DNA of 64,000 bases from an uncultured Rhodospirillaceae bacterium (GCA_964566055.1 CAZMHI010000022.1:213-64212); one strand, 5' to 3'. Shown: positions 2,862 to 43,264, counted from the first letter of the stretch. Program-made: numbers and translations. The notes: a model not told the origin generated them from the sequence alone.

Positions 2862-3371
2862 CTACTCAGCCGCAGATTTTTCCAGGCGTTCTTTCGCCGT
2901 TGCCATGATGGCGTTGACGATGCCGGCATAGCCGGTGCAGCGGCAGAGATGGCCGCTCAACATATCGCGGACTTCTGCTTCGCTGGGGTCGGGATTTTTC
3001 TCCAGATATTCGCTCGCCGACATCAGGATACCCGGGGTGCAGTAACCGCATTGCAGCCCGTGATGGGTTTTGAAATTTTGCTGCAGATCGCTTAAAGGGT
3101 CTTCCCTTCCGGTGAGGCTTTCTACTGTATCAACCTTTCGGCCGTCGACTTGCACCGCCAGCGTTAAGCAGGAGCGCTGGGCTTTGCCGTCAATCTGTAC
3201 TGTGCAGGCACCGCAGACACCGTGTTCGCAGCCAACGTGACAGCCGGTCACACCCATGACATTACGCAGGAAATCCGACAGCAGCATACGCGGCTCGGCT
3301 ATGCCGGATTCCGCCATACCGTTCAGGGTGAAGTTAATTTTTTGCACAGCCTCCTGGCTTAGCTTCGGCAT
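2862..3371 (-). CDS. hmfC: Mo-hydroxylase [2Fe-2S] small subunit (HmfC/CoxS-like)
   Basis: GCEHGVCGAC, QCGYC and CRCTGY clusters; third gene of an L-M-S operon. Symbol denotes family only. Confidence 0.8.
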   Translation of the reverse strand: MPKLSQEAVQKINFTLNGMAESGIAEPRMLLSDFLRNVMGVTGCHVGCEHGVCGACTVQIDGKAQRSCLTLAVQVDGRKVDTVESLTGREDPLSDLQQNFKTHHGLQCGYCTPGILMSASEYLEKNPDPSEAEVRDMLSGHLCRCTGYAGIVNAIMATAKERLEKSAAE

Positions 3372-4186
3372 GAAATTGCCTCCTCTATGACGCGGCGGCC
3401 TAATCTCCGCACCAGCTCCCGCCGGTACCGTGCCGTGGCGTGAATGTCATCGCTGCCTTTGAGTTCCCAGGCGAAGGCGTTGAGCTCATCGTCGAGATTT
3501 TCAGCAGCCAAATTTGTCCAGCTTTTAACTGTCGGCTTATCGGCAACGCCGCCGACGCCTAAGCGCACGTCATCACCACTTGCCACAGCGGCGATTGCAG
3601 CAATGGCAAAATCACCCCGGCGCTGAGCCACTTCATCGAAGGCGAAACCTTCACCGGGTTTTTTAAAGGGATAGCGGGCGGCGATAATTAATTCATCATC
3701 GGCCCGGGCGGTGGTCATCATGCCGAGCTGAAACTCAGCCGCTGATAAAACGCGCTCACCTCGAGTCGAGGCCAATACAACTTCGCCACCAAGCGTCGCC
3801 AGACATAGCGGCAATTCGGACGACGGATCGGAGTGTGACAATGAGCCGCAGATGGTGCCCCGGTTGCGGGTCTGAAAATGTCCGAGATGCGGGATCGCCT
3901 GATGCAGCAGGGGTATGCGATCTTCCAGTCCCGGCCAGGACAGGAGTTCCGCTTGGGTCGCCGTGGCGCCAATTTCCAACATGTCACCAGCGTCTTTGAT
4001 ATAAGAAAGCTCGGCTATTTGCGAGATGTCGATCATCACGCTGGGATCAGCCAGCCGTAAATTCATCATCGCCATCAGCGATTGACCGCCGGCAAATATT
4101 TTTGCTTCACCACCTGCTTCGCTTAAAGCGGACAGAGCTTCGGCGGTATTTTCTGCCCTGACGAGATCAAATTTTCTAGGTTTCAT
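3359..4186 (-). CDS. hmfB: Mo-hydroxylase FAD medium subunit (HmfB/CoxM-like)
   Basis: MKPxxF start, AGGQSL FAD motif, QTRNRGTICGSL; abuts large and small subunits. Symbol denotes family only. Confidence 0.8.
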   Translation of the reverse strand: MKPRKFDLVRAENTAEALSALSEAGGEAKIFAGGQSLMAMMNLRLADPSVMIDISQIAELSYIKDAGDMLEIGATATQAELLSWPGLEDRIPLLHQAIPHLGHFQTRNRGTICGSLSHSDPSSELPLCLATLGGEVVLASTRGERVLSAAEFQLGMMTTARADDELIIAARYPFKKPGEGFAFDEVAQRRGDFAIAAIAAVASGDDVRLGVGGVADKPTVKSWTNLAAENLDDELNAFAWELKGSDDIHATARYRRELVRRLGRRVIEEAISCRS

Positions 4187-7177
4187 TTACTTGCCCCCCA
4201 GCCATGCTAAGAGACGTTGCCAGAGCGAAGGTGCTCCCGATCCCATGGTCACCGATCCCGGTGCTTCAACTTGTTTGATCAGCCGGCTGAAGAATTGATT
4301 GACCACAACACGCGCGCCGCCTTCGATTAAGCGGCTGCCGACGGCTGCTACTTTGCCCGAAATCTCAACTGAATAATCATAGCTCACCAGCGTGCCGCCA
4401 TCCTTTGCTTCCAGCCGGACCCGGCCTTCGCCTACGGATGAGCCGAGCGGTCCATCAAGGCCACCCGCCAGGGTCGCTGATTTTGGCTCGTCAAGATCAG
4501 ACAGCTTCACATGCGCCAGGAATTTACCGCGTACCGGTCCGGCACCGAGGCTGACTTCGGCGCGGTAGTCATTTTCGGCCACCTGGTCGAGACCATGACA
4601 ACCCGGGATAACCGCCGCCAGTTTTTCCGGATCAAGCAAAGTATCCCAGACCGTCTGTGGATCAGCCGGTACCATTGAGTTGCCCGTGCCAGTAATAGCG
4701 CTGCTTTTGCCGTCGTCTTTTACGGGTTCAGCTGCTTCTGCCTCCATTTGCTTAGGTGGCGGTTGCTCCTCCTCGCCATGGATCAGGGTGCTAATTTTGG
4801 AGGGGAACAGCGGCACCTGGATGTTATCCAGATCCAAGGCATCGCAAACTGCATTGGCGATACAGACCGGCGTCGACATACAATTGCCATCAGCCAGACC
4901 TTTGGCGCCCAAGGGCGTGTGAGGCGAGGGCGTTTCCATATGCAAGATTATCGGCTCCGGCACTTCGGTCGCGGACGGCACCAGATAATCGGCGAAGGTA
5001 CCTGATTTAAAGCTGCCATCCTCGTCATAGACGAATTCTTCGAAAAGCGCTTCACTGACACCGTGGCTGTAGGAGCCCAAAATCTGACCATGAGCGATCA
5101 GCGGATTGAGGATGGTGCCGGCATCATGTGCGGTGACATAATGATCAATGCGGACCTCACCGGTATCCCGGTCAATCTCGACACCGCAAAAATCGATATT
5201 GAAGCCATAGACCAGCGATGTGTTAATGCGGTCTTTTTCATCTGGCGCGGTCAATTGGCGAGGCGTCCAGACAGCGGATTCACTGAGGCCGCCTTCCATG
5301 CCTTCGGGCAGGCTGCCGGGTGACCAGTGAGCGGTACCGGCAACGCGGTAGAATTTAAGGCAGTTATCTTGATTGTCGCGGGCAAAAATTAAGCCATTGC
5401 CAAACTCAACTTCCTCGACCGGCACATTGAGATTGGGAGCGGCAATATGAGCCAGCTTGTCCCGCATCATCTTGGCTGCCATTTGAGCAGCGACGGCCGG
5501 GCCGCTGGTAAAGCGGGCGGCATAGTTACCGGCGGCGATCGACCATTTATCCTTTTGCGTATCGATTTCCATATTGCAGGTAATTTCTGATGGCTGCAGG
5601 CCAAGTTGCTCGGCGACAATTTGCGCCAACAAAGTCGCATGGCCTTGGCCCATCGGCGGCACATCGGTTGAGCAACTGACGCCGCCAAAGGGATCGACAC
5701 TCACCGTGGCATTGGAATTGGTGCCCTGGGTCGGACTGCGTTTAGCCCGCTCTTCCTTGGTCAGGATGGTGGTGATGTAGCCCATATTCGAGTGCGTCGG
5801 CTCGGTAACCGCTGCGTAGCCGACACCATAAATCCGGCCCTCGGCGCGGGCTTCATCCCGGCGCTTCAAGATCTCATCCAGCCGGCCTTCTTTGACGGCC
5901 ATATCGACGCAAGCCTGGTAATTGCCGGAATCGAAAACCGCACCAGCCGCCGCGTGATAGGGGAAGGCATTTGCTGATACCAGGTTTTTGCGGATCACAT
6001 CCAACGGATCGAGATTTAACTCAATCGCCACCCGGTGCATCACCCGCTCGATGGCATAATACATTTGCGGTCCGCCAAAGCCCCGGACCATGCCGGAGGG
6101 ACTTTTATTGGTCATCACCAGGCGATTACGCACATAAAGATTGGGAATTTCGTATGAGCCCGTGGCCACACCATGCATCCGGTAGAGCGGTCCCGGCATC
6201 GGTGCACGCAAAAAGGCGCCGTAATCGTCCAGCTGGCTGAGGCGGAAGCCGGTCACCTTGCCGTCTTTCATCGCTGCGGCTTCGATCTCTACGACCCGGT
6301 TGGGCGCTGCTGTTGCCGAGGATAAATGTTCGAGCCTATCCTCAACCCATTTAACGGGCTTGCCGGCAATACGGGAGGCCACGGCCATCAGAACGATATA
6401 GGGGAAAATCGCGACTTTAATGCCAAAACCACCACCAGTGTTAGACGGTGTGCGCAAACGCAAGCCCGTGTTCTTTACCCTTAAGGCCCGGCACATCACT
6501 GGATGAACGGTGAACGGCCCTTGGAAATTAGCCAGCACGTCATAGACGTTCTCCGCTGGATGGTAATCCGCCATGACGACATAATTTTCCATCGGCGTGA
6601 TAGAGCTCCGGGGAAAATCAATTTTGAGTTTAACCACACGGTCGCATTCCTCGAAGGCTTTATCGGGATCACCATAATTAAATTCGCGGTCCGACAGGAT
6701 GTTGGAGTCACATTCTTCATGGATGGTTGGCGAGTCATCACTGGCGGCGTATTCAGGATCAACAGCAGGTTCAAGCACATTGTATTCGACTTGGATGTGA
6801 TCAACCGCATCCTCGGCGATATAGCGGTCCATGGCAACGACCAGCACCAGGGCTTCACCGACATAGCGGACCCGGTCAACGGCCAACGGCCATAATTTCA
6901 TTGGCGCTTTAACGATATTTAAAAACGGATCGACATATTCCTGTACATCGGCGCCGGTAATAACGCAAACCACACCCGGCAGGGCTTCCGCTTTGCTGGT
7001 GTCAATTGAGACGATTTCAGCATGGGCGTGGGGGGATCTGAGCATGGCGGCGTGGCGCGTGTCATGGCGGGCCGGGTAATCGTCGGCATAGCGGGCCAAA
7101 CCACGCAACAGGGCTTCGTCTTCGACCCGCTCTATTGGTTTGCCTACGAACTTTTCCGGTACAAATGCTTCGGCCAT
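4187..7177 (-). CDS. hmfA: Xanthine-dehydrogenase-family Mo large subunit with C-terminal CoxG/SRPBCC domain (2-furoyl-CoA dehydrogenase HmfA-like)
   Basis: 996 aa; VRGFGGPQ, PVKWVEDRLEHL, SNMGYITT, WSIAAGNY, DRINTS and MSTPVCIANA match my recollection of the HmfA subfamily; last ~160 aa CoxG-like (VWDTLLDPEKLAAVIPGC). Confidence 0.8.
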   Translation of the reverse strand: MAEAFVPEKFVGKPIERVEDEALLRGLARYADDYPARHDTRHAAMLRSPHAHAEIVSIDTSKAEALPGVVCVITGADVQEYVDPFLNIVKAPMKLWPLAVDRVRYVGEALVLVVAMDRYIAEDAVDHIQVEYNVLEPAVDPEYAASDDSPTIHEECDSNILSDREFNYGDPDKAFEECDRVVKLKIDFPRSSITPMENYVVMADYHPAENVYDVLANFQGPFTVHPVMCRALRVKNTGLRLRTPSNTGGGFGIKVAIFPYIVLMAVASRIAGKPVKWVEDRLEHLSSATAAPNRVVEIEAAAMKDGKVTGFRLSQLDDYGAFLRAPMPGPLYRMHGVATGSYEIPNLYVRNRLVMTNKSPSGMVRGFGGPQMYYAIERVMHRVAIELNLDPLDVIRKNLVSANAFPYHAAAGAVFDSGNYQACVDMAVKEGRLDEILKRRDEARAEGRIYGVGYAAVTEPTHSNMGYITTILTKEERAKRSPTQGTNSNATVSVDPFGGVSCSTDVPPMGQGHATLLAQIVAEQLGLQPSEITCNMEIDTQKDKWSIAAGNYAARFTSGPAVAAQMAAKMMRDKLAHIAAPNLNVPVEEVEFGNGLIFARDNQDNCLKFYRVAGTAHWSPGSLPEGMEGGLSESAVWTPRQLTAPDEKDRINTSLVYGFNIDFCGVEIDRDTGEVRIDHYVTAHDAGTILNPLIAHGQILGSYSHGVSEALFEEFVYDEDGSFKSGTFADYLVPSATEVPEPIILHMETPSPHTPLGAKGLADGNCMSTPVCIANAVCDALDLDNIQVPLFPSKISTLIHGEEEQPPPKQMEAEAAEPVKDDGKSSAITGTGNSMVPADPQTVWDTLLDPEKLAAVIPGCHGLDQVAENDYRAEVSLGAGPVRGKFLAHVKLSDLDEPKSATLAGGLDGPLGSSVGEGRVRLEAKDGGTLVSYDYSVEISGKVAAVGSRLIEGGARVVVNQFFSRLIKQVEAPGSVTMGSGAPSLWQRLLAWLGGK

Positions 7178-30912: not shown

Positions 30913-31623
30913 CTACCGGCTGAGTCGTGAGGTCAGATTTTCCCACACTCGATCTATAGCCAGACCGCTAAAGAACAACTCGGTGCATTTTTCGGTTTCT
31001 CCAGGCGTCAAATAGCGGACCTTGCCGAGCGGCATCGCCTGCAATTGGACGGCAGCGGATATCTGCAGATAAACCGCCATTATTGTAGCACCTTTGATGT
31101 CCGGCCCGGCGACCGAGCAGCCGTGACCACGCATTAAAATAATGCTGCTCTCGCCCAAGCTTTTGGCTAGATCCCGGCCATGCTCCATATTGCGGACCAG
31201 CATATCGGTATCGCCGAAATTGTCATGAATATCCCAGATCGGAATGTCACGGCCAATTGCGGCTGCAGTATGAATAATCGGTTGCAGTTGAGTGCCGGTA
31301 ACGCCAAACGGAATAACCGACAGCGAATGATTGTGAACCACGGATTGAACTTCGGGCCGGGCTTCCAGGATTGCGCCATGGATAAATCGCTCGCCGTAAG
31401 GTGTTAAAGTTGAACCATCGACATTATTACCCTCAAGATCAAACTCCATCAAATCGTCCCGGCAAACAATCTCCGGCGCACGAGAACAGGAAATGAAAAA
31501 ATGGTTAGGGTTATCCGGATTGCGGACACTTATGTGGCCAAAAGAATCAACCACATTTTCATTGGCAAGAATGTGATTGGCAACCACCAGTTCGTCCTGC
31601 AGGGCTTCAAGTTTGGCGTTCAT
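30913..31623 (-). CDS. Class II aldolase/adducin-fold protein, HMPD 4-decarboxylase-like
   Basis: DSFGHIS.R, ERFIHG, VHNHS and MRGHG metal ligands; layout resembles my recollection of M. loti mlr6791. Confidence 0.85.
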   Translation of the reverse strand: MNAKLEALQDELVVANHILANENVVDSFGHISVRNPDNPNHFFISCSRAPEIVCRDDLMEFDLEGNNVDGSTLTPYGERFIHGAILEARPEVQSVVHNHSLSVIPFGVTGTQLQPIIHTAAAIGRDIPIWDIHDNFGDTDMLVRNMEHGRDLAKSLGESSIILMRGHGCSVAGPDIKGATIMAVYLQISAAVQLQAMPLGKVRYLTPGETEKCTELFFSGLAIDRVWENLTSRLSR

Positions 31624-31660
31624 TCGAAAAAATCTTTCCCCGGTTCATATTCATTTCAAT

Positions 31661-31678
31661 CATTTAGAAATCTAAGTA
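31661..31678. promoter_or_regulatory. MarR operator candidate 1
   Basis: CATTTAGAAATCTAAGTA, near-palindrome of consensus TACTTAGA-WW-TCTAAGTA. Confidence 0.7.
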
Positions 31679-31793
31679 TATTTAAGAAATTAGTCTATAC
31701 TGAAAGCCATGTAGTTTGGCATTTACGGTAAGATAGTTTAAAGATTAGAGAATATTATTTTATTAATTCATTTAAGCAGATTGGTTAGTTTAA

Positions 31794-32264
31794 ATGCCGC
31801 CAAAAAAGAAAGCTAACGGCAGTTTACCGCCGTCAAAGAGCGTGGGTTTTCTCATTCGGGATACCATGCTGCACATGCAGATCGTGTTACGAGCTCTTTT
31901 GCAGGAGCATAACCTCTCTACCGCCCAATGGTATCAGCTTCGCGTGTTGTGGGAGGAAGAGGGCATCAGTCAACGTGAGCTGAGTCAACGCGTCTGCACC
32001 ACCGAGCCAACGACCCAAAGTGCCTTATTGCGCCTGGAGCAGCAGGGCATTGTCAAACGGGTGCGCAGTAAAACCGACCGCCGCGCAAATCATATCTTTT
32101 TGACCAGAAAAGGCCGTGCGCTGGAGCCAAAATTGATCCCCTATGCGATGACCGTCAATGACGTGGCAGCAAAGGGCATAAGCAAAAAAGAGATCAAAGA
32201 ATTCACCAAAATCATCAATAAAATCCGCGCAAATATAATAGATGAAATTGGTTCTACGGATTAA
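31794..32264 (+). CDS. MarR-family regulator
   Basis: 156 aa; GISQRELSQR...RLEQQGIVKRVRSKTDRR winged HTH. Confidence 0.95.
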   Translation: MPPKKKANGSLPPSKSVGFLIRDTMLHMQIVLRALLQEHNLSTAQWYQLRVLWEEEGISQRELSQRVCTTEPTTQSALLRLEQQGIVKRVRSKTDRRANHIFLTRKGRALEPKLIPYAMTVNDVAAKGISKKEIKEFTKIINKIRANIIDEIGSTD

Positions 32265-32405
32265 CCTCGCTATTTCCGCTATTAACGCTCTCGAGAATGT
32301 ATTGAGGCCTGAAGCGCAGTAACTGGCGGAAAAAATGACCAAATCCCATTTGATGGTTGCGCCCTGCACACCCTCGGCGGAGTGGCTTGATCCCAATTTT
32401 AAGAC

Positions 32406-34739
32406 TTAATTGTTGGCATCCTGTATGGCCTGCCAGATGGCAAACGGTGTCGCCGGCATTTTAATATCAGTGATGCCATAGGCTTTTAAAGCATCTACCA
32501 CAGCGCTTATGAAAACCGCCGGCGCTGAAGTTGTTCCGCCTTCACCTCCCGCTTTGATGCCCAACGGATTGGTTGGCGACGGCACTTCGTTGAGCTCGAC
32601 TTTAAAGGCAGGCAGGTCGCCAGCGCGGAGCATGCCGTAATCCATCAAAGAGCCGGTTAGCGTCTGACCATTTTCCGGATCGAGCACGCAGGCCTCAACC
32701 ATGGCTTGACCCAAGCCTTGCACAATTGCGCCATGAGTTTGGCCATGCACGATCAGCGGATTAATTGCCCGGCCAACATCATCAATGGCTGCGTAGCGAA
32801 CGAGATCAACCTCGCCGGTTTCGGGATCAATCTCAACTTCACAGATATGGCAACCATTGGGCACGACGGGCGTATGCATCTCGTTGCTGCGCACGACATT
32901 TAAGCCGCCTTGAAGGTCTTCCGGTAATTCAGTGGCATCAGCTTTGCCTGCCAGTTCATAAAGGCTGATAGAGCGATCTGTACCTTTGACGGTAAAATCA
33001 CCATCACCAAATTCGATGTCGGCAACCGCAGCTTCCAAGACATGGCTGGCAATATTTTTAGCTTTTTCGATCAGCTCATCGCAGGCCATGACAATGACCG
33101 TGCCGGCCATGCGCATAGAACGGCCCGAGTGTGAGCCGCCGCCGACTTTAACAATATCGGTATCACCTATCACGATCTGTATTTCATCAACGGGCAAGCC
33201 CAGCCACTCTGCAGCGACTTGAGCAAAGCTGGTTTCATGGCCCTGGCCGGACGGTTGGGTGCCGATAACCAAATCGACGCGGCCATCTGGAATGACATGC
33301 AACTCGGCTTGCTCAACCGGCGTGCCGATGGAGGATTCAACATAATTGGCGAAACCAACTCCGAGCAATTTGCCGCGCCTCTTAGCTTCTGCCCGCCGCT
33401 CTTCCCGGTTATCCCAATCGGCAAGCTTCTTAGCCATCTCAACGCTTTTGTGATAATCGCCGCTGTCATAATTGAGCCCGATGGGATTTGTGTAGGGCAT
33501 CTCGTCTTCACGCAGAAGATTGAGATTCTTTAGCTCCTGCACATCCATGCCGGTCTGCTCCGCTGCCAGTTCAACCAATCGTTCAATGGCGAAGGTCACT
33601 TCCGGGCGGCCCGAGCTGCGATAGGCTTGAGTGGGCACGGTATTGGTAAAAACCGCCCGTGAACGAATACAACCAACGGGTATACGATAAGAGCCGCTGA
33701 TGAGTTGCGAGCCTTTACCGAGCGGAGAGAAGGAAACGGCCCTGGCGCCGACATTGCTGATATTATCGGCCCGCATAGCCAAAAACCTGCCTTTTTTATC
33801 GAGCGCCAGTTCGACCGAGGTGTAGAGATCGCGGCCCTGATAATCGCTGATAAAAGCTTCGCTGCGGTCACAGGTATATTTCACGGGTCGGCCGATTTTC
33901 TTGGAGGCCCAGGCGACCAGACCAAACTCGACATAGACCCGGTTGCGGGTGCCGAAATTGCCGCCAACATCATGGGATAGAATACGAACATCGTCCGGCT
34001 CGACGTTTAAGACCACAGCGAGCTCCCGTTTTTGCCGGACCGCACCACCGCTGCCGGCATAAATCGTATATCTGCCCGTCGTGCTATCATAGGAGCCCAA
34101 GGCAGAGCGTGGTTCTATCGGCACGCCGGTTACGCGGTCAATATGAAATTGTGTCGAGATAATATGATCAGCCTTGGCAAAGGCTTGGTCGGTGCCGCTG
34201 ACATCGCCGAAAGTGGTATCAATACAGACATTGGCGGGCAGCTCATCCCAGACAGCTGGTCCCTCAACATTGGCCGCTTTTAAGCCATCCGCATTATGAG
34301 GCAGGGTCTCATAATCAACGAAAACCTCTTCTGCGGCGTCCATGGCTTGCGCTTCGGTTTCGGCGACCACCAGGGCGACCGCCTCGCCAACATGGCGGAC
34401 CTTGTCGGTCGGCAACAATACATGCGGACCGATAAAAACCTCACCGCCATCAGGTGCCCCCAGTTTGAGATCGTTGTCGGTCTTCGGTAGCGGAGAGTGC
34501 GGAATGCTGGTGAGGTGATCCACTGCACAATCCTCGCCCCTAAAAACACCAAGCACGCCCGGCATATTGTGCGCCGCACCGGTGTCGATTGAAATTATTC
34601 GCGCATGGGGATAGGGCGAACGCACCACCACCGCATAGGCCTGGTTCGGCAGATTAAAGTCATCGGTAAACTGGCCTTTGCCGGTCAGCAGGCGCTGATC
34701 TTCCTTGCGGCGAACCGGCTGGCCAATGTGTTTAGTCAT
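32406..34739 (-). CDS. Xanthine-dehydrogenase-family Mo large subunit (CoxL form-II-like), orphan
   Basis: IGQPVRRKED, DVGGNFG, AYRSSGRPE, QGHET, IKAGGEGG; 8-nt overlap with the upstream UbiD gene. Confidence 0.9.
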   Translation of the reverse strand: MTKHIGQPVRRKEDQRLLTGKGQFTDDFNLPNQAYAVVVRSPYPHARIISIDTGAAHNMPGVLGVFRGEDCAVDHLTSIPHSPLPKTDNDLKLGAPDGGEVFIGPHVLLPTDKVRHVGEAVALVVAETEAQAMDAAEEVFVDYETLPHNADGLKAANVEGPAVWDELPANVCIDTTFGDVSGTDQAFAKADHIISTQFHIDRVTGVPIEPRSALGSYDSTTGRYTIYAGSGGAVRQKRELAVVLNVEPDDVRILSHDVGGNFGTRNRVYVEFGLVAWASKKIGRPVKYTCDRSEAFISDYQGRDLYTSVELALDKKGRFLAMRADNISNVGARAVSFSPLGKGSQLISGSYRIPVGCIRSRAVFTNTVPTQAYRSSGRPEVTFAIERLVELAAEQTGMDVQELKNLNLLREDEMPYTNPIGLNYDSGDYHKSVEMAKKLADWDNREERRAEAKRRGKLLGVGFANYVESSIGTPVEQAELHVIPDGRVDLVIGTQPSGQGHETSFAQVAAEWLGLPVDEIQIVIGDTDIVKVGGGSHSGRSMRMAGTVIVMACDELIEKAKNIASHVLEAAVADIEFGDGDFTVKGTDRSISLYELAGKADATELPEDLQGGLNVVRSNEMHTPVVPNGCHICEVEIDPETGEVDLVRYAAIDDVGRAINPLIVHGQTHGAIVQGLGQAMVEACVLDPENGQTLTGSLMDYGMLRAGDLPAFKVELNEVPSPTNPLGIKAGGEGGTTSAPAVFISAVVDALKAYGITDIKMPATPFAIWQAIQDANN

Positions 34740-36375
34740 CTAAAACATCGCGGACGGGGGTGTTGGGTTTAATACCGCTGCGTTTCATTTGATCCGAACG
34801 TTGACCATTTGTGAGGTAATCGCCCTCGGCAGCCCGCTTTGCAATCTCGTCCCAATGATCCGACCAATCACCCAGGCTATAGCCATGCCAGGGTGGCTCC
34901 GGCGTCAAGGGAGGCAGGCCTAATTTTTCCCAGAGCACTTTGGCATTTTCCATATATTCGCGCTTGGGCAGAGCCAGCGGCGGCATATCGCCTTTTAACG
35001 TGGCATCGATCAGCATGGTAGAATCTTCAGGTTTATCTTTATTCTTAGGACCATGTCCGCGATCACGATGGGGCAGGATGACGACATCTTCGCCCGGATC
35101 GGCGCGATAGGCCATCGACCAAAACACGGCATCAGCATTGTCCGGATCGATATCTTCATTAAGGGCGATGACATATTTACCGGTATCGGCCCGGAGTGTT
35201 GCCGCCCCTTGCATGGCGCGGAAAATTTCGGTTCGTGGCACGCCGCGCTCCATGACGATAAAAATCACCCGCCGGATATTTGTCAGCGGCTCGTGCATGA
35301 CGACTTTTTTGATGCCTTTAATGCCGAGGGTTTTCTGCAGATGTTCAAGATACATCGGCTCATAAGCAACTTTTTTAATCACGCTGGATTCGCTGGGCGT
35401 CACCTGCGAGATGATCGAGCTGAAGACGGCATTTTCCTTGCGGGTGATCACGGTGACATCGAAGATCATGTTGAAGTCTTCCAGCGCGATATGGCCGTGC
35501 GATTCACCAAAGGGTGCTTCCGGTTCCAGATATTCGGTATCGATCAAGCCTTCGATGATGATTTCCGCATCTGCCGGCACCATTAGATCAATGCTCTTAC
35601 ATTTCACCGTCCGGATTGGCTCTCCCGCCAAGCCGCCAGCAATCGATAATTCATCGACATCGCGGGGCATTTTTTGCGGGCCCAGATAAGCCACTGCTGG
35701 CGGGCAGCCAAGCACCACTGCACATGGCATTTTATCACCCTTGGCTTTATATTTCTCCCAATGGGGATAGCCACCGGCGCCGCCGTGACGGGTCGACATG
35801 CGCACCGCCATGCGCGTCGGTGATTTGAGACCACCGCGATAGGTACCCATGTTTTGAATGCCGTTTTCAGGGTCCTTGGTGACAAAATTACCGGCTGTCA
35901 GGTAAGGCGCGCTATCAAAGCCAGGAGAAGAAATCGGTACGGGCAGCGCATCCAGGCCCTTACCTTCACCATCGATATCACTGCCTTCAAGCACCACTTC
36001 CTGGCACGGCGCGGTATCGACTTCGACGGGTTCTATCGGATTGGCGACAGCGTTTTGCCAGGCGGGGCCGATTTGATCCAATGGCACGTTCATGCCGATA
36101 CTGTAGATTTGGCTATTAGCCGCAAGGGCGCCAACAATAACCGGCATGTCAAATTTACGGCCCTTGGAGTCGACTATATTTGTGAACAGGAAAGCTTTAC
36201 GGTCACCTTCCGGGATGCCGCCCCGGAATTGCCAGCGCACCAAAGCATGCAGTTCCGTGTCTTTATTTACCTCGGCGTCAATGCGGTGGAGCAGGCCGGC
36301 TTTATCCAAGGCAGCTATATGTGTCTGCAAATCTGCGTAGCCAGATTTTGAGCCGGTGGCGGCGTCATCCATCAT
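34732..36375 (-). CDS. UbiD-family (prFMN) (de)carboxylase, paralogue 1
   Basis: NMGTYR (Arg), EAPFGE (two Glu), EDIDP, IDAT. Confidence 0.9.
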   Translation of the reverse strand: MMDDAATGSKSGYADLQTHIAALDKAGLLHRIDAEVNKDTELHALVRWQFRGGIPEGDRKAFLFTNIVDSKGRKFDMPVIVGALAANSQIYSIGMNVPLDQIGPAWQNAVANPIEPVEVDTAPCQEVVLEGSDIDGEGKGLDALPVPISSPGFDSAPYLTAGNFVTKDPENGIQNMGTYRGGLKSPTRMAVRMSTRHGGAGGYPHWEKYKAKGDKMPCAVVLGCPPAVAYLGPQKMPRDVDELSIAGGLAGEPIRTVKCKSIDLMVPADAEIIIEGLIDTEYLEPEAPFGESHGHIALEDFNMIFDVTVITRKENAVFSSIISQVTPSESSVIKKVAYEPMYLEHLQKTLGIKGIKKVVMHEPLTNIRRVIFIVMERGVPRTEIFRAMQGAATLRADTGKYVIALNEDIDPDNADAVFWSMAYRADPGEDVVILPHRDRGHGPKNKDKPEDSTMLIDATLKGDMPPLALPKREYMENAKVLWEKLGLPPLTPEPPWHGYSLGDWSDHWDEIAKRAAEGDYLTNGQRSDQMKRSGIKPNTPVRDVLDD

Positions 36376-36385
36376 CAATTCCTTA

Positions 36386-36403
36386 CCATAAGAAATCTAA
36401 GTA
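36386..36403. promoter_or_regulatory. MarR operator candidate 2
   Basis: CCATAAGAAATCTAAGTA; shares AGAAATCTAAGTAT with site 1; 10 nt upstream of the UbiD-1 start. Confidence 0.7.
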
Positions 36404-36489
36404 TTTTACTGATACATCCTTTAATACTCCTAGACAATGCGATCTTGAGATGGCTTGATAATAAAAAAATTAAATGGGATGCAGGATCT

Positions 36490-38556
36490 ATGGAAACTGA
36501 AATGCTGGCGATGGCCATCAAGGCGGCGCTTATTTTAAGCGATCCGGTCAGGCTTGGATTTCTGGCTTTTGGCGTTTTCCTAGGACTTATTCTGGGTGTT
36601 ATCCCCGGTCTTGGCGGCCTCGTCGGCCTGTCTTTGTTACTGCCGTTTACTTTCAATATGGATCCCTTTTCAGCCCTTGCTCTGATGATGGGGCTGGCTT
36701 CGGTTACGGTAACGTCCGACACCATCCCGGCAGTATTATTTGGTGTACCCGGCACAGTGGGATCGGCAGCAACCATCTTGGATGGCAATCCGATGGCTAA
36801 AAAAGGCCAGGCCAGCCGGGCCTTTGGTGCGGCCTTTACCGCCTCCGTTATTGGCGGCCTGATTGGGGCGGCGATATTGGCCGTGAGCGTGCCGGTTCTG
36901 CGCCCCGTGATGTTGTTTATCGGCACGCCGGAATTACTGGCGATCTGTGTGCTCGGTTTATCATTGGTGGCGACCTTAAGCGGCGGCGCACCGTTAAAAG
37001 GATTGGCAGCTGCTTGTATTGGCTTGATGGTGGCGACCATTGGCGAGGAAGCGCAAACCGGTGAAGTACGTTGGGCGGGCGACTCGTTGTATCTCGTAGA
37101 AGGTCTGCCGATTGTCCCCTTAGCGCTCGGCCTATTTGCACTGCCGGAACTGGCCTCAATGGCGATTGACCGCTCCAGCATTGCTGCCGGCACCGATGGT
37201 CTGCCTAAGAAAGAAAAACGCTGGGCCCAATTGGAAGGCGTCAAAGACGTTTTCAAAAGCTGGTTCTTAGTTGTTCGTTGTTCGGCCATCGGCTCAACCC
37301 TCGGCGCGGTGCCGGGTATTGGCGCTTCGGTCATTGATTGGATTGCCTATGGCCATGCCTCCCGGAGCGAAAAAGGCGCTGCCGAAACTTTCGGTAAAGG
37401 CGATGTTCGGGGCGTGATAGCGTCGGAAAGTTCCAACAACGCCAAAGAAGGCGGGGCGCTGATCCCAACCGTGGCTTTTGGTGTGCCGGGCTCGGCCTCA
37501 ATGACGTTGTTGTTGGGCGCCTTTTTGATCCACGGCATTACGCCTGGGCCAAAAATGCTGACCTCGCAGTTGGATATCACTTACACCCTGGTGTGGTCCG
37601 TGGCGCTGGCGAATATTCTAGGTGCCGGCATCTGCTTTGTGTTTGCCAATCAACTGGCGCGTATTGCCCTGATCCGGAGCGGCATTCTGGTGCCGGTTGT
37701 ATTGGCGGTGACGTTTATCGGCGCCTTCCAAGGCTCCCGAGATTGGGGCGATATCTACGCCTTGCTGATATTCGGCGCTATTGGCTGGATTATGAAGCAA
37801 AAAGGCTGGCCGCGCCCGCCGCTGGTGCTGGGTTTTGTGCTGGGCGGCTTGGTTGAGAATTATATGTTTATCTCGGTTAGCCGCTATGGCGCGGATTGGC
37901 TGCTGCGACCGGTTGTCATGATCATCTTCGCCATCACGATTTTTGGCCTCGCCCGGCCTTATCTGAAAGCCTATTTCGACACTCGCAAATCTGAAAAAGT
38001 TGTCTCTTCTGCTGGTGTCAGTTTCGGCTTCCGGCCCGAGAATTTTAGCGCGGACAGTTTGGTTGCCTTGATTGTGCTTGGCGGGTTTTTGGTCACGCTT
38101 TATTTGTCTTTCGGCTGGGAGTTGGCGGCTAAACTTGTGCCCCAGGTGATTGGCTGGGCAGGCGTGATCTTTATTGGTTTATTCCTATTGCTGTCGCTTT
38201 TCATATTGCGTCCGGACAATGGCCGCGCCCGGCAAAATCTCGATATCAGCTCAGACCATACCGGCCTAACCGAGCGCCTGGTCTATCAGCGGGCGGGGGT
38301 TTATTTCGGCTGGTGTCTGGCTTATCTCGGGGCGGCAACTGTTATTGGTCTGATCCCGGCCCTGTTCTTTTTCATGGCCGGATATTTACGTTTTGTCGGG
38401 CGGGAAAGCTGGCGTATGACACTGGGCGTCGCCGTGCCGGCCTGGATATTCTGTTATGTATTATTTCACCAGATACTTCTGGTGCCTTGGCCGGAAACGG
38501 TGATCGGCCAGATGTTCCCGGCCCTGAGAAGTATTCGACCCTTGGCTTTGTTCTAG
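36490..38556 (+). CDS. tctA: Tripartite tricarboxylate transporter permease, TctA fused to a TctB-like domain
   Basis: GVIPGLGG, PAVLFGVPGT, ESSNNAKEGGALIPT; about 150 extra C-terminal aa with four TM segments; ATG 36490 chosen. Confidence 0.9.
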   Translation: METEMLAMAIKAALILSDPVRLGFLAFGVFLGLILGVIPGLGGLVGLSLLLPFTFNMDPFSALALMMGLASVTVTSDTIPAVLFGVPGTVGSAATILDGNPMAKKGQASRAFGAAFTASVIGGLIGAAILAVSVPVLRPVMLFIGTPELLAICVLGLSLVATLSGGAPLKGLAAACIGLMVATIGEEAQTGEVRWAGDSLYLVEGLPIVPLALGLFALPELASMAIDRSSIAAGTDGLPKKEKRWAQLEGVKDVFKSWFLVVRCSAIGSTLGAVPGIGASVIDWIAYGHASRSEKGAAETFGKGDVRGVIASESSNNAKEGGALIPTVAFGVPGSASMTLLLGAFLIHGITPGPKMLTSQLDITYTLVWSVALANILGAGICFVFANQLARIALIRSGILVPVVLAVTFIGAFQGSRDWGDIYALLIFGAIGWIMKQKGWPRPPLVLGFVLGGLVENYMFISVSRYGADWLLRPVVMIIFAITIFGLARPYLKAYFDTRKSEKVVSSAGVSFGFRPENFSADSLVALIVLGGFLVTLYLSFGWELAAKLVPQVIGWAGVIFIGLFLLLSLFILRPDNGRARQNLDISSDHTGLTERLVYQRAGVYFGWCLAYLGAATVIGLIPALFFFMAGYLRFVGRESWRMTLGVAVPAWIFCYVLFHQILLVPWPETVIGQMFPALRSIRPLALF

Positions 38557-38565
38557 GCAAAAAAT

Positions 38566-38599
38566 AAGGGCGATCCCGCGTATTCCCGGGACCGCCCTT
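38566..38599. terminator. Bidirectional terminator between convergent transporter genes
   Basis: AAGGGCGATCCCG-N8-CGGGACCGCCCTT, flanked by an A run and a T run. Confidence 0.85.
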
Positions 38600-38622
38600 G
38601 ATTTTTATTAATGTAAAAAGCG

Positions 38623-39705
38623 CTATTTCTTCTTTTTCTTCTTACAATTGACTTGGCATTTGCCCGGTTTTTGTGCCCAGGCAGCTTTCGCTTCTTTCAC
38701 CACATCTGGTGAAGCCTTCAATATGTTCATGACAATTTGCTGGACTACTTCACCGGTTTTAGGCTGGATCAGTGCCCGGCGTTTTTTGGCATCTGCCAAC
38801 AATCCAGGATCTTTAACGGTTTTATTGAAAGCGCCGCGCAGAGCCGCAATACGGTCAGCCGGTACACCCGGAGGCGTGGCGATGGAACGGCCAATGGCAG
38901 AACCGCCGGAGACAAACTTTAGAACAGCTTGAGCTTTAGGATCGGATGTCAGTTCCTGCATCAACGGCAGATTAGGCAGCTCTTTCTCTCTAGCCAAACC
39001 AACCTGGACCAGCGGTGTCAACTCACCTTTGCTGATACGGTCGGCATGACGAATGCGCCAGCTTATCCAGGCACTTGACTGAATATCGACTTCACCGCGC
39101 TCAAGCGCCAGGGTCAATGGTGCAGAACCTTTGTAGCCGCAGATTAATTTGTATTTGAGGCCCAGAAAATACTTCTGCATTGCCGGCATGATAAAGCTTT
39201 GCGAGTTGCGGCCCGTGCAGCCAACCACGACTTCGGTACTTTTTATCGCTTTGATCGATTTAGCCGGCGCACCTGCGCGCGCCATGACAACCGGATTAAC
39301 CGGCACGACGCTGCCAAGCGAGGTGAATTTAGTGGGGTCATATTTCACCCGCTTTGGATTAAGCAAAGAGGCCGTTGCATAGGCATCGAAAGGCCAGAGC
39401 AGGAAGGTGCCGTCTTTGGCGCCAGAGCGATAGCTGTAATTGGTGCCTTTGGTGCCGCCACCGCCGCCCATATTTTGAACGATAATGCTTGGCTTGCCGG
39501 GGATATATTTACCCATATGGCCGGCAAATAAACGCGCATAGGCATCGTATGAGCCGCCTGGAGGATAGGGTACCAGGAAGGTGACAGTTTTGCCTTTGTA
39601 AAATTCGGCTGGTGATTGAGCCGCCGCGGGCTGGATCGAGAATGCTCCGGCAATGGACAAAGCGGCAATTGCGGACGCTGTCAGTAATTTTGACTTCAAC
39701 ATCAT
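38623..39705 (-). CDS. Bug/TctC-family periplasmic solute-binding protein
   Basis: Sec signal, VPYPPGGSYD, QNMGGGGG, GYKGS...ALERGEVD. Confidence 0.9.
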   Translation of the reverse strand: MMLKSKLLTASAIAALSIAGAFSIQPAAAQSPAEFYKGKTVTFLVPYPPGGSYDAYARLFAGHMGKYIPGKPSIIVQNMGGGGGTKGTNYSYRSGAKDGTFLLWPFDAYATASLLNPKRVKYDPTKFTSLGSVVPVNPVVMARAGAPAKSIKAIKSTEVVVGCTGRNSQSFIMPAMQKYFLGLKYKLICGYKGSAPLTLALERGEVDIQSSAWISWRIRHADRISKGELTPLVQVGLAREKELPNLPLMQELTSDPKAQAVLKFVSGGSAIGRSIATPPGVPADRIAALRGAFNKTVKDPGLLADAKKRRALIQPKTGEVVQQIVMNILKASPDVVKEAKAAWAQKPGKCQVNCKKKKKK

Positions 39706-39725
39706 TTCTTCTCCCTGTTAAAAAA

Positions 39726-39783
39726 TAGTTTGATTTCTAAGCTTATTAGTCAGCTTAGTGTTTGATAGAAAGAAATTAAAGTA
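39726..39783. promoter_or_regulatory. MarR operator candidates 3 and 4
   Basis: TAGTTTGATTTCTAAGCT (39726-39743) and TAGAAAGAAATTAAAGTA (39766-39783). Confidence 0.6.
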
Positions 39784-39829
39784 ATATTTTAAGGCCAACA
39801 ATAAATTGATTTTAGGGGAGAACAAGGCC

Positions 39830-41629
39830 TTGGATAAGACATCAGATTACGCATCAATGAAATACCCGGAAACACCGGTTAATTTGCCGGCTAATAAGGC
39901 GACGGCGGAATATGGCTCGGACGTCATGGCTGATGTCATCTCCGATATGGGTTTCAAGCATATTTTTGTGCTACCCGGTTCGAGTTTTCGCGGTCTGCAC
40001 GATTCATTGGTTAATCATATCCGCAATCAAAATCCAGAAATGATCATGTGTAATCATGAATCCATCGTCGTTTCGATGGCGCATGGCTATGCCAAGGCCT
40101 CAGGTGAAACAGCAACTTGTGTGGTACATGATCTGGTTGGCCTGATGTGTGCCTCGGTCAGCGTTTTTGATGCCTGGATCGACCGGGTACCGTTGCTGAT
40201 ATTTGGTGGTAGCGGTCCACAAGACCCCGCCCGCCGCCGTCCCATCGATTGGACCCATACGGCAAGCATGCAATGTGATCTGATCAAGCCGTTTGCCAAG
40301 TGGACGGCCGAGCCGGTAACCCTGCAAGCGACAATCGACACCATGCTCCGGGCCAATACAATCGCCTCTTCCAAACCCCAAGGACCCGCCTACGTATCGC
40401 TTGATTTGGGCATTCAGGAACAAGATAACCTTGACGATCTCGTGGTGCCGGATGCGGCGCTGGAACGCTTTCAACCGCCGGCGCCCATGGCGGCGAATGC
40501 CGAAGCCATTGAAAGTGCTATTGATATGTTGTTGGCAGCCGAAAAGCCGTTAATTGTTGGTGGGCGCTTTGGCCGTGATGTCGGGGTCACTGCGATACTT
40601 GCTGAATTGGTCGAGCTTTCAGGTGCAGCCTATATCGAGGACCGCGCCGTTGTCTGCATGCCGACCTACCATCCGCAAAATCTGAACGGCGATAATGAGT
40701 TACGCAAAACCGCTGATCTGGTTTTGGCCATTGATTGCGTTGATACCACAACCGTAATGGCCGCTCATAATAAAGATGTGCGGGGCCGTGAGGGTCAGAA
40801 AGTCATCGAGATGACGCTCGAAAATCTTTATCCAAGCTCCTGGTCCAATGCCGGTGGTCCGCAAGCAGCCGTTGATCTGGTGCTTGAGTGTGAGCCGCTT
40901 TACGGTATGAGCCAATTGACCGAAGCCTTAAAATCGCGCCTCAATGGTCAGGACGATCAGCTCAAAAAAATCGCTGCACGTAAGGAAGCCATAGCCAAAG
41001 CACATACCGAATTACGCCAAGCTCAAAAAGACGCCCAGCAGGAAGATTGGGATGCTGTGCCGATCAGTACGGGCCGCCTGACCCATGAGCTTTATCAGGC
41101 GGTCAAAGACAAGCCTTGGGTGCTGCCGGTGCGCAATCATCGCAGTTTTCCGGAAGGTCTCTGGGAGTTTACGGAATCCGGCCAGTATCTTGGCGCCGAT
41201 GGCGGCGGTGGAGTTGGCTATGGTCCGGGTGCTGCAGTTGGCGCCGCTTTGGCCTACCGGGAACAAGGCAAATTGCCAGTCGCCATTATGGGCGATGGTG
41301 ATTTCCAAATGGGCAGCGGCGCGATTTGGACGGCGGTGCATTATAAAATTCCGCTGCTGCTGGTCATCAATAACAATAATTCCTGGGGCAATGATGAATT
41401 CCATCAGAGAAATATTGCCCGCAATCGCAATCGGCCGGTAGAAAATGCCTGGATTGGCCAGCGCATGACTGAACCGGCAACGGATTATGCAGCCATTGTG
41501 CGGGGCTATGGCGGCTGGGCCGAAGGTCCGGTCGAGGACCCGGAGGATTTAGCCGAGGTCTTTAAACGCGCGGTTGCCGAAGTGGAAAAAGGCAATGTTG
41601 CTGTCGTTGATGTCAGGACAGCTTTGTAG
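39830..41629 (+). CDS. TPP-dependent enzyme (acetolactate synthase/benzoylformate decarboxylase superfamily)
   Basis: PGSSFRGLHDS, NHE, GDGD...INNN; TTG 39830 chosen after a GGGGAG RBS. Confidence 0.9.
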   Translation: MDKTSDYASMKYPETPVNLPANKATAEYGSDVMADVISDMGFKHIFVLPGSSFRGLHDSLVNHIRNQNPEMIMCNHESIVVSMAHGYAKASGETATCVVHDLVGLMCASVSVFDAWIDRVPLLIFGGSGPQDPARRRPIDWTHTASMQCDLIKPFAKWTAEPVTLQATIDTMLRANTIASSKPQGPAYVSLDLGIQEQDNLDDLVVPDAALERFQPPAPMAANAEAIESAIDMLLAAEKPLIVGGRFGRDVGVTAILAELVELSGAAYIEDRAVVCMPTYHPQNLNGDNELRKTADLVLAIDCVDTTTVMAAHNKDVRGREGQKVIEMTLENLYPSSWSNAGGPQAAVDLVLECEPLYGMSQLTEALKSRLNGQDDQLKKIAARKEAIAKAHTELRQAQKDAQQEDWDAVPISTGRLTHELYQAVKDKPWVLPVRNHRSFPEGLWEFTESGQYLGADGGGGVGYGPGAAVGAALAYREQGKLPVAIMGDGDFQMGSGAIWTAVHYKIPLLLVINNNNSWGNDEFHQRNIARNRNRPVENAWIGQRMTEPATDYAAIVRGYGGWAEGPVEDPEDLAEVFKRAVAEVEKGNVAVVDVRTAL

Positions 41630-43264
41630 ATGGCAGCTAACCAATATCACGACATTCATCAGCATATCGAGGCTTTGCGCGAAGCGGGCTTGTTGTATGA
41701 GGTCGACCGCGAGATCAATAAAGATACTGAAATGCATCCTTTGGTGCGTTGGCAGTATCGCGGCGGCATCGCCGAGGAAGAGCGCAAGGCTTGGCTCTTT
41801 ACCAATGTCGTCGACAGCAAGGGCCGAAAATTCGATATGCCGGTATTGGTCTGTGGCCTGGCGGGCAGCCCGGCAATATATGAAATCGGTATTGGTTGCA
41901 GCCTGGAAGAAGTAAACGCCAAATGGTCAGCGGCGATTAAGTCTCCGCTCAAACCCAACATTGTCGAGAGCAAAGCGGCACCTTGCCACGAGTTGGTTTA
42001 TGAAGGCAAAGATTTGCAGAGCGGTAAAGGGCTCGATGATCTGCCGATCCCGATCTCAACGCCGGGCTGGGACAATGCACCGTATTCCTCGTCATCCCAT
42101 TACATCACCAAGGACCCTGAGACCGGCATCCAAAATATGGGCAATTACCGGGGTCAGGTCAAAGCGCCGGACCGCTTCGGTATGAACACCTCGACAGAAC
42201 TGCGCACCGGCGGCCATATCAACTGGCTGGCCTGGAAAGAGCGGGGCGAGAAAATGCCCTGCGCCGTGGTCATCGGCTGTGCGCCCGTAGTTTCTTATGC
42301 TTCGGTGCAGAAAGTCCCGGAAGGCATCGATGAGTTGGAAGTCGCCGGCGCACTTGTCGGACGGCCGCTTGATCTGGTCAAAGCCAAAACCGTCGACCTA
42401 CTCGTGCCGGCAGATGCGGAAGTTGTCATCGAGGGCTTTATCGATACGGAATATCTCGAACCGGAAGCGCCGTTCGGTGAATCCCATGGTCATGTTAATT
42501 TGCAGGAATATAACGGCTATATGGATGTCACGGCGATCACCCGCCGGAAAAAGGCGGCGATTTCATCCTGGGTCAGCCAAGTTGCACCCAGCGAATCCTC
42601 CGTCATCCGGCGTTTTGCATACGAGTCACGAAATGCCTCTTATCTCAGAGATACGCTGGGCATTAAAAGCGTAGTTACCGTAAAAGCACATGAACCCTTA
42701 ACCTCGCTACACCGGGTTCATGCCATCATTTTTAAAAAAGACACGCCCCGCACCGAGATTTGGCGCGCCATGTATGGCCTGGCAGCGTTCCGCCAATCCG
42801 AGGGCAAATGGATCATTGCTGTCGATAAAGATATCGATGGTGAGAATGCCGATGCACTATTTTGGGCCATGGCCTATCGCTGCAAACCCCAGCACGATAT
42901 GGAAATCATCAAGCACCAAGACGGCGGCCATGGACCGCGTGATCTAGCCGATCCGGAAGATGCCTCCGTGCTGATTGACGCCACGCTTAAAGGCACTTTT
43001 CCGCCGGTGTCATTACCCAAGCAGGAGTTCATGGAACGCGCTGCCGAGATTTGGGATGAGCTCGGCCTGCCCAAGCTAAAACGCGAGTCTCCCTGGTATG
43101 GCTATGATCTCGGTGAATGGACGGAAGAGTTTGAACATATGGCCGACCTCGCCGTCAAAAGTGAATACTGGCAGACCGGCAAAGTGATCGCCCAACGGCG
43201 GCGCAATGATGTCGACATGAACACCGAAGTTCGAACTTTAGCTGATGAGGAAGAAAACGAATAG
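41630..43264 (+). CDS. UbiD-family (prFMN) (de)carboxylase, paralogue 2
   Basis: NMGNYR, EAPFGESHGH, KDID, IDAT; clearly paralogous to 34732-36375. Confidence 0.9.
   Translation: MAANQYHDIHQHIEALREAGLLYEVDREINKDTEMHPLVRWQYRGGIAEEERKAWLFTNVVDSKGRKFDMPVLVCGLAGSPAIYEIGIGCSLEEVNAKWSAAIKSPLKPNIVESKAAPCHELVYEGKDLQSGKGLDDLPIPISTPGWDNAPYSSSSHYITKDPETGIQNMGNYRGQVKAPDRFGMNTSTELRTGGHINWLAWKERGEKMPCAVVIGCAPVVSYASVQKVPEGIDELEVAGALVGRPLDLVKAKTVDLLVPADAEVVIEGFIDTEYLEPEAPFGESHGHVNLQEYNGYMDVTAITRRKKAAISSWVSQVAPSESSVIRRFAYESRNASYLRDTLGIKSVVTVKAHEPLTSLHRVHAIIFKKDTPRTEIWRAMYGLAAFRQSEGKWIIAVDKDIDGENADALFWAMAYRCKPQHDMEIIKHQDGGHGPRDLADPEDASVLIDATLKGTFPPVSLPKQEFMERAAEIWDELGLPKLKRESPWYGYDLGEWTEEFEHMADLAVKSEYWQTGKVIAQRRRNDVDMNTEVRTLADEEENE

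Follow-up and report, generated by a model that had tools for sequence, protein, structure and literature searches.

A MarR-linked gene cluster with two UbiD-family proteins in an uncultured Rhodospirillaceae bacterium, and its possible role in the breakdown of imported aromatic or N-heteroaromatic carboxylates

What might a bacterium gain from placing two UbiD-family proteins beside an aldolase-fold decarboxylase, a thiamine diphosphate (ThDP)-dependent enzyme, a molybdenum hydroxylase and an importer? The question is raised by eight genes at positions 30913-43264 of a 64,000-nucleotide stretch of contig C22 from an uncultured marine Rhodospirillaceae bacterium (the window, whose positions serve as coordinates throughout). 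The gene set was taken from an open reading frame (ORF) list and a Pfam domain search, and the gene content and coordinates claimed in a preliminary description of this DNA hold, as all eight genes are present and each is confirmed by Pfam. They form three divergent units, separated by intergenic regions that exist in the sequence as described earlier. The gene for a class II aldolase-fold decarboxylase (hereafter the aldolase; minus strand) faces one for a MarR-family regulator (plus strand); UbiD1 and then MoL, the large subunit of a xanthine oxidoreductase (XOR)-family molybdenum hydroxylase (minus), face TctAB, a permease of the tripartite tricarboxylate transporter (TTT) type (plus); and a TctC-like gene (minus) faces the ThDP gene and then UbiD2 (plus). 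The core of this cluster recurs in many bacteria of sea and soil, and its most likely role is the breakdown of an imported aromatic or N-heteroaromatic acid. More specifically, we suggest with moderate confidence that these genes form one branch of a catabolic regulon under MarR control, directed at imported free aromatic or N-heteroaromatic carboxylates.

The idea of a regulon starts from a 13-nucleotide imperfect palindrome, TTAGAAATCTAAG. At up to two mismatches it is matched three times in the window, once in each divergent intergenic region, against an expectation of 1.1 for all 64 kb. With one mismatch allowed at most, the genome has 14 matches; two lie in the C22 cluster and five in a second UbiD cluster on contig C52 (C52:3500-33000, loci L105 and L106), and all seven are intergenic. 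The C52 sites stand before a divergent UbiD pair, a paralogue of the aldolase (87% identical), a bicupin operon, a divergent UbiD/ThDP pair and an OCD-led operon. The regulator is duplicated as well: a MarR paralogue (93% identical) is encoded on C52, and an orthologue (73% identical) has a perfect motif alongside in a same-genus genome (L109/L021). MarR would bind the motif sites and presumably act as a repressor, and the pattern of sites points to the C22 and C52 clusters being one regulon. The site between the TctC-like and ThDP genes lies 22 nucleotides upstream of a -35-like TTGATA and overlaps another palindrome, CTAAGCTTATTAGTCAGCTTAG, with 7-bp arms (39737-39758), which came from a terminator scan and is more likely a protein-binding site. 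A fourth operator candidate, near 31683, was dropped, as it has about six mismatches.

Three UbiDs from other subfamilies are encoded in the C52 cluster, together with a fused TctAB, a TctC-like protein, a ThDP enzyme and another class II aldolase. That this functional mix is repeated there under the same operator is the strongest indication that the aldolase and MarR of the window belong with the UbiD, TTT and ThDP genes. C52 further holds three gentisate-dioxygenase-like bicupins, OCD-family proteins, TauD, a P450, and two HGD-D (2-hydroxyacyl-CoA-dehydratase D) components with an EutA-like ATPase bearing a His-rich tail. From this inventory, ring cleavage seems to be a task of the sister cluster, whose bicupin dioxygenases, under the same operator, would probably perform it. 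A PhtD-like binding-fold protein is also encoded in the C52 cluster.

Conservation across genera ties the remaining genes together. The order MoL-UbiD1/TctAB/TctC-like/ThDP-UbiD2 recurs in another genus of the family (L016/L108) at 62-77% identity, the TctAB orthologue of L016 being 75% identical, and the four-gene core MoL-UbiD1/ThDP-UbiD2 is found in L016/L108 and L107 at 62-78% identity. In the genome that carries L107 (G087), the MoL-UbiD1 and ThDP-UbiD2 pairs face each other across one divergent promoter region, and no transporter genes intervene. Within the window, the MoL start overlaps the UbiD1 stop by 8 nucleotides, and UbiD2 starts on the base right after the ThDP stop. It could nevertheless be argued that UbiD1-MoL, ThDP-UbiD2 and the aldolase are independent modules acting on different imported acids, with a common regulator only and no single pathway. 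The modules are indeed found separately in other genomes, and this genome offers many combinations, with 21 UbiD-domain genes, 24 molybdenum large subunits (next to 19 small and 17 medium ones) and 17 fused TctAB paralogues. Such independence seems unlikely to us, however, given the shared operator, the conservation of the four-gene core across genera, and the coupling of stop and start codons within each pair.

The two UbiDs are 53% identical to each other, both match the UbiD_N, UbiD and UbiD_C models of Pfam, and both belong to a large branch of proteins of about 545 residues marked by the signatures EPEAPFGESHGH and SQVAPSESS and by a conserved C-terminal tail reaching to about residue 530. 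The tail alone, used as a query, retrieved 453 clusters at 50% identity, and full-length matches, about 530-555 residues long, carry it at their C-terminus. A tree built from 162 members, which come from 89 loci fetched with UbiD2 as query, separates three clades, A (with UbiD1), B (with UbiD2) and C, with supports of 98-100. Equivalents of N168, R173, E233, E277 and E282 are invariant in all 154 members of these clades, so that the Arg and two Glu residues attributed earlier to both UbiDs are retained there as everywhere in the clades; in this numbering, which is that of Aspergillus niger Fdc1, we take N168 and E233 to be metal/phosphate ligands and R173, E277 and E282 to be catalytic. The NMG(T/N)YRG and EAPFGESHGH motifs are likewise present in UbiD1 and UbiD2. 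Sixteen positions are fixed differently between the clades, several of them charged residues at 186-193, near what we assume to be the equivalent of the Fdc1 metal ligand H191, and such clade-specific residues fit different substrates.

Every NCBIfam equivalog falls far below its cut-off for both proteins, and the closest solved structures, though distant, are those of PtHmfF (6H6X and 6H6V; E-values of 2e-38 to 2e-41, bit scores of 130-145). Aligned with HmfF, the UbiDs retain the catalytic Arg, both Glu residues and the Asn and Glu metal ligands. At the residues that are presumably the distal-carboxylate ligands of PtHmfF, the equivalent of R331 is kept as Arg or Lys, that of H296 is Ser, and that of R304 is Tyr or Met. 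The UbiDs are therefore HmfF-like in fold, and probably in mechanism too, yet with Ser and Tyr in place of H296 and R304 they are not HmfF; they also differ from it in being about 100 residues longer, with the conserved tail. In keeping with the uncharacterised pathway proposed in the preliminary description, they stand outside any characterised substrate class, the NCBIfam scores being below cut-off and HmfF matched at only about 1e-40. It was also right that the window has no ubiX: the one UbiX of the genome (TIGR00421, above cut-off) is on contig C4 (C4:33606-34145).

Two UbiD-family paralogues in one system recall PpcABCD of Thauera aromatica, and an obligate hetero-oligomer of UbiD1 and UbiD2 like PpcA/PpcB, forming one composite (de)carboxylase, had been considered earlier. 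In its favour, genes of clades A and B adjoin each other in at least 35 of the 89 loci, often accompanied by C, and all three have the conserved C-terminal tail in common. Against it, each clade is also found by itself in loci with full flanks (A alone in rhizobia, B in 17 loci and C in 20), the two genes belong to separate divergent operons in the window, and every catalytic residue is retained in all clades. There is also no room for a small subunit like PpcC/PpcD or VdcD, since the gaps that remain measure only 66-141 bp in the ORF list, and therefore no small partner subunits are hidden within the cluster. Both UbiDs fail the NCBIfam models for PpcA (TIGR02723; 121 and 110 bits against a cut-off of 565) and PpcB (TIGR02724; 93 and 84 bits against 469), and unlike the Thauera system the window lacks PpcC and PpcD and presents an importer-linked catabolic cluster, in an organism with many oxygen-dependent enzyme genes. 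We thus regard a composite enzyme as very improbable, and two separate UbiD enzymes within the proposed regulon as the better account.

The molybdenum hydroxylase of the preliminary description is borne out as an XOR-family protein, though as a large subunit alone: no iron-sulphur (FeS; Fer2) or flavin adenine dinucleotide (FAD) subunit adjoins MoL in the window, nor its orthologues in L014 and L016. A PDB search placed CoxL, 6-hydroxypseudooxynicotine dehydrogenase and quinoline 2-oxidoreductase closest to it. The catalytic Glu near the C-terminus is kept (GGEGG, aligned with the GIGES Glu of CoxL). The active-site loop reads QAYRSSGRPE (TQAYRSSGRPEV), against VAYRCSFR in CO dehydrogenase (CODH), and CODH identity is ruled out by the absence of that loop, the NCBIfam CODH models also scoring below cut-off. 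In YAGSGGAVRQK a Gly occupies the position of the Gln that contacts Mo=O in nearly all members of the family (Q240 in CoxL); this Gly is common to MoL and its four orthologues, whereas all 18 other large subunits of the loci have Gln. Since 7DQX carries a His at this position, the Gln is not absolutely required.

From where could MoL obtain its partners? The rhizobial MoL orthologue has adjacent small (S) and medium (M) subunits, and the best matches to these in our genome (63% and 47%) are the CoxS and CoxM of an operon at C63:9780-13789 (L111), which continues with XdhC and a 544-aa protein containing a MobA-like nucleotidyl transferase domain. The 27.6-kb contig C63 has no molybdenum large subunit. 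This operon presumably provides the FeS and FAD subunits that MoL lacks, and orphan large subunits may share it as a module for electron transfer and cofactor insertion. Of the 21 UbiD genes, six are within 5 kb of a molybdenum large subunit, where a rough expectation is about 1.4, and the association of UbiD with molybdenum hydroxylases is thus a theme of this genome. At C26:53810-57800 and C4:65766-72100, a partner-less large subunit (42-43% identical to MoL) is paired with a UbiD of a different subfamily; the one on C26 is the closest relative (49%) of a second MoL behind UbiD in rhizobial clusters.

The ThDP enzyme comes from an uncharacterised family. Its best NCBIfam model is PRK08327 (253 bits, where the cut-off is 456), and it falls far below the cut-offs of all named equivalogs, among them those for benzoylformate decarboxylase (141 against 493), 2-hydroxyacyl-CoA lyase (119 against 600) and acetolactate synthase (114 against 538); its homologues form a large family with automatic 'acetolactate synthase-like' names only. 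In relatives, the gene is recurrently paired with an FMN-dependent 2-hydroxyacid dehydrogenase (FMN_dh), and because this pairing is frequent it suggests that the ThDP enzyme acts on a 2-oxoacid side chain or fragment, a role absent from the preliminary description. It would be tempting to go further and propose side-chain shortening, in which the ThDP enzyme makes an aldehyde from an aryl-2-oxoacid (itself made by FMN_dh in relatives), the molybdenum enzyme oxidises this to an aryl carboxylate, and UbiD decarboxylates the product, much as a mandelate pathway extended by prenylated flavin mononucleotide (prFMN)-dependent decarboxylation. FMN_dh adjoins the ThDP gene in 19 loci, the partial PDB matches of the ThDP enzyme are to benzoylformate decarboxylase, benzaldehyde lyase and 2-hydroxyacyl-CoA lyase, the best NCBIfam model for MoL is glyceraldehyde dehydrogenase alpha (549 bits, below cut-off), and all four core genes flank one divergent promoter region in G087. 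Yet every one of these family scores is below cut-off, no FMN_dh is in the window, loci with both FMN_dh and ThDP mostly have no molybdenum subunit, and two or three UbiDs and the HMPD-decarboxylase-like enzyme would be left unexplained. Side-chain shortening therefore strikes us as a rather unlikely alternative to the regulon for free carboxylates favoured here.

For the aldolase, a specific kind of reaction can be proposed. Its likeness to HMPD decarboxylase, noticed earlier, is borne out by its best PDB match, 2Z7B (E-value 2.8e-49, 39% identity over 222 aligned residues; the next match is at 1e-15, so that no aldolase comes close), which is Mlr6791, the HMPD (3-hydroxy-2-methylpyridine-4,5-dicarboxylate) decarboxylase of vitamin B6 degradation in Mesorhizobium loti. 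The metal-binding His residues align (HNH and GHG, an H-x-H and a later His), and there is a weak NCBIfam match to PhtC, 3,4-dihydroxyphthalate decarboxylase. HMPD decarboxylase and 3,4-dihydroxyphthalate decarboxylase both take off a carboxyl beside the ring hydroxyl of a dicarboxylate. The window gene resembles 2Z7B in sequence and metal-binding His, and differs in being paired with MarR and UbiD clusters.

The TTT importer is complete and departs from its earlier description only in that the permease is a TctA-TctB fusion, both membrane domains being in one ORF, and not a pair of separate genes. The signal peptide of the TctC-like protein ends AAAQ|S. PDB matches of that protein to BugD (1.5e-13) and a terephthalate-binding protein (1e-11) are weak, and hence say nothing on its ligand. 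A CoA ligase (AMP-ligase) is present in only 12 of the 89 loci, and so few ligases near UbiD fit free acids, not CoA esters.

Together, these genes allow a scheme to be proposed. The TctC-like protein and the fused permease would import a free acid. The two prFMN-dependent UbiDs, as separate cytoplasmic enzymes both supplied with prFMN by the single UbiX, would each remove a carboxyl at a different position or from a different intermediate. MoL, translationally coupled to UbiD1, would borrow FeS and FAD subunits from elsewhere (the C63 operon being a candidate) and hydroxylate a ring or oxidise an aldehyde; the ThDP enzyme, coupled to UbiD2, would decarboxylate a 2-oxoacid group or fragment, and the HMPD-decarboxylase-like enzyme would take off a carboxyl beside a ring hydroxyl. 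What the sequences show are the identities of the genes, their conservation, the common motif and the intactness of the catalytic residues; the substrate class, the order of steps, the trans-acting subunits and the repressor role of MarR are what we infer, and all three decarboxylase types might conceivably act on one polycarboxylate.

Several observations weigh against this scheme. The preliminary description had expected the genes to be co-regulated and co-conserved; the motif is in all three divergent regions and the core is syntenic, whereas linkage of the aldolase and MarR genes to this core does not extend beyond the genus of the window. Some loci with UbiD-A orthologues (70-74% identical) lack a molybdenum subunit altogether, which means that UbiD-Mo coupling is not universal. 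The exchange of Gln for Gly may make the chemistry of MoL atypical, and it is not obvious what the ThDP enzyme would do in a route for aromatic decarboxylation. Finally, the UbiD clade has no assigned substrate and no characterised member, and full-text literature searches found no paper on this clade or on this gene combination.

Two known systems are similar in part. The hmf furan catabolism of Cupriavidus basilensis HMF14 (HmfF/HmfG with HmfABC) reportedly combines a prFMN-dependent UbiD acting on a heteroaromatic dicarboxylate with an XOR-family molybdenum hydroxylase and a Bug/TctC-type binding protein, as the window does; in contrast to it, the window cluster has no furoyl-CoA ligase or hydrolase, and its ThDP enzyme and second UbiD are without an hmf counterpart. 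Cluster I for lumazine/pterin degradation in Cupriavidus sp. LA-1 (LuDH, DHLI, XCDC, UbiX) is similar in applying a molybdenum hydroxylase and a UbiD to an N-heteroaromatic: there, a three-subunit hydroxylase and a divergent UbiD with UbiX degrade the compound, and the carboxylate removed is created earlier in the pathway (PMC12391406). That cluster differs in having an amidohydrolase-type isomerase pair, a pterin deaminase, purine/pyrimidine permeases and a single UbiD, with no TTT and no ThDP enzyme (PMC12391406). By Pfam, no DHLI isomerase pair, pterin deaminase or nucleobase permease is among the window genes. The dip cluster for dipicolinate was set aside as unrelated, since it uses a monooxygenase and a GntR regulator.

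Among the 89 loci, the commonest clade layouts are A-B (12), A-B-C (11), B-A-C (6) and B-C (4), next to many single-clade loci, and the neighbours are TctAB (33), TctC-like (33), SDR (31), ThDP (27, with a second ThDP in 11), TetR (19), FMN_dh (19), a molybdenum large subunit (19), CoxM (15), CoxS (15) and Amidohydro_2 (15). Metagenome-assembled genomes from ocean and soil often carry the branch; in an order-level sample it is present in 14 of 151 genomes, which marks it as a patchy accessory trait. Cultured carriers, all with the genes on plasmids, are Neorhizobium petrolearium OS53, Sinorhizobium meliloti LMB1 and S. fredii strains. These rhizobial plasmids have a simpler version of the cluster, in which CoxM-CoxS-CoxG, a substrate-binding protein and MoL (62% to that of the window) are divergent from a clade A UbiD (60%); behind this UbiD come a second MoL, GntR, UbiX, TctC, ThDP and TctAB, with a MarR nearby.

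A bolder idea, which we put forward as rather doubtful, is that the tailed UbiD branch of about 545 residues represents a widespread, undescribed route to polycarboxylated (hetero)aromatics in marine and soil Alphaproteobacteria, with mixed-and-matched partners. These might tentatively include molybdenum hydroxylases, a new ThDP family, FMN 2-hydroxyacid dehydrogenases and TTT importers, and candidate substrates, no less tentatively, would be pyridine, pyrrole or benzene polycarboxylates, or breakdown products of cofactors or pigments. We also speculate, with low confidence, that UbiD1-MoL could then perform a two-enzyme decarboxylative hydroxylation, in which a ring C-H beside N is exposed and then hydroxylated by the Gln-to-Gly molybdenum enzyme; equally speculatively, the large subunit might dock onto an S/M electron-transfer module that is shared and has its genes elsewhere.

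Why would such a branch matter? UbiD enzymes are sought after as reversible (de)carboxylases, to our knowledge only a handful of their substrate classes are known, and this branch comprises hundreds of 50%-identity clusters that carry the tail and no characterised member. Most same-order genomes have 1-6 UbiD candidates by first-look counts. Because its 21 UbiDs, 24 molybdenum large subunits and 17 fused TTT permeases stand out in the order, the present genome suggests a specialist in carboxyl-rich aromatic matter, a lifestyle relevant to how refractory dissolved organic carbon is turned over. UbiX-bearing homologous clusters on plasmids of culturable rhizobia, together with a defined operator and a duplicated MarR, make the question testable.

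Table 1. Genes and other features of the C22 cluster, in window coordinates
Feature	Position	Strand	Basis and remarks
Class II aldolase-fold decarboxylase, HMPD-decarboxylase-like, metal-dependent, 236 aa	30913..31623	-	Pfam Aldolase_II, 93 bits; 2Z7B
Operator-like motif TTAGAAATCTAAG, perfect, aldolase/MarR divergent region	31664..31676	+	Motif scan
MarR-family regulator, 156 aa	31794..32264	+	Pfam MarR
XOR-family molybdenum hydroxylase large subunit (MoL), 777 aa	32406..34739	-	Pfam hammerhead, MoCoBD_1 and MoCoBD_2
UbiD1, clade A	34732..36375	-	Pfam UbiD_N/UbiD/UbiD_C; tree; catalytic residues
Operator-like motif TAAGAAATCTAAG, 1 mismatch, UbiD1/TctAB gap	36389..36401	+	Motif scan
Fused TctA-TctB permease	36445..38556	+	Pfam TctA, 413 bits, and TctB, 35 bits; start uncertain, orthologue 675 aa
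Strong hairpin, 13 pairs, 9 GC, between the convergent TctAB and TctC-like genes	38566..38599	.	Likely terminator
TctC-like periplasmic binding protein, divergent, 360 aa, signal peptide	38623..39705	-	Pfam TctC, 36 bits against a cut-off of 27
Operator-like motif TTAGAAATCAAAC, 2 mismatches, TctC-like/ThDP gap	39728..39740	-	Motif scan
ThDP-dependent enzyme	39806..41629	+	Pfam TPP_enzyme_N/C
UbiD2, clade B, 544 aa	41630..43264	+	Pfam UbiD_N/UbiD/UbiD_C; tree

Two start sites deserve comment. The ORF list begins UbiD1 at TTG 36378 (548 aa); the ATG at 36375 sits behind an AAGGAA ribosome-binding site and is likely the true start, judging from this arrangement. The ThDP gene probably starts at 39830, because the called product is 599 aa. 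An AlphaFold model of UbiD2 was set aside, as it came from a 20-sequence alignment with a mean predicted local distance difference test (pLDDT) score of 58 and values below 50 in the C-terminal half.

The cluster has the GC content of the rest of the contig, with a low-GC sugar island upstream and a ferritin-like gene and a TAXI-TRAP/LysR unit downstream. About 25 kb upstream (2862-7177, minus strand), the window also encodes a complete set of CoxS (169 aa), CoxM (275 aa) and an unusually long large subunit (996 aa), as identified by tblastn similarity only. Elsewhere, four UbiD genes of the branch in L103 (ena:ERZ28763718 ctg125547) are interleaved with insertion sequence (IS)/transposase genes and an extracytoplasmic function (ECF) sigma pair, which suggests that this array was recently rearranged. 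On one marine contig (L014:15-4768), AllH/AllF/AllG-like and carbamate kinase-like genes adjoin the MoL-UbiD1 orthologues, a weak hint that may tie the cluster to the breakdown of N-rich heterocycles.

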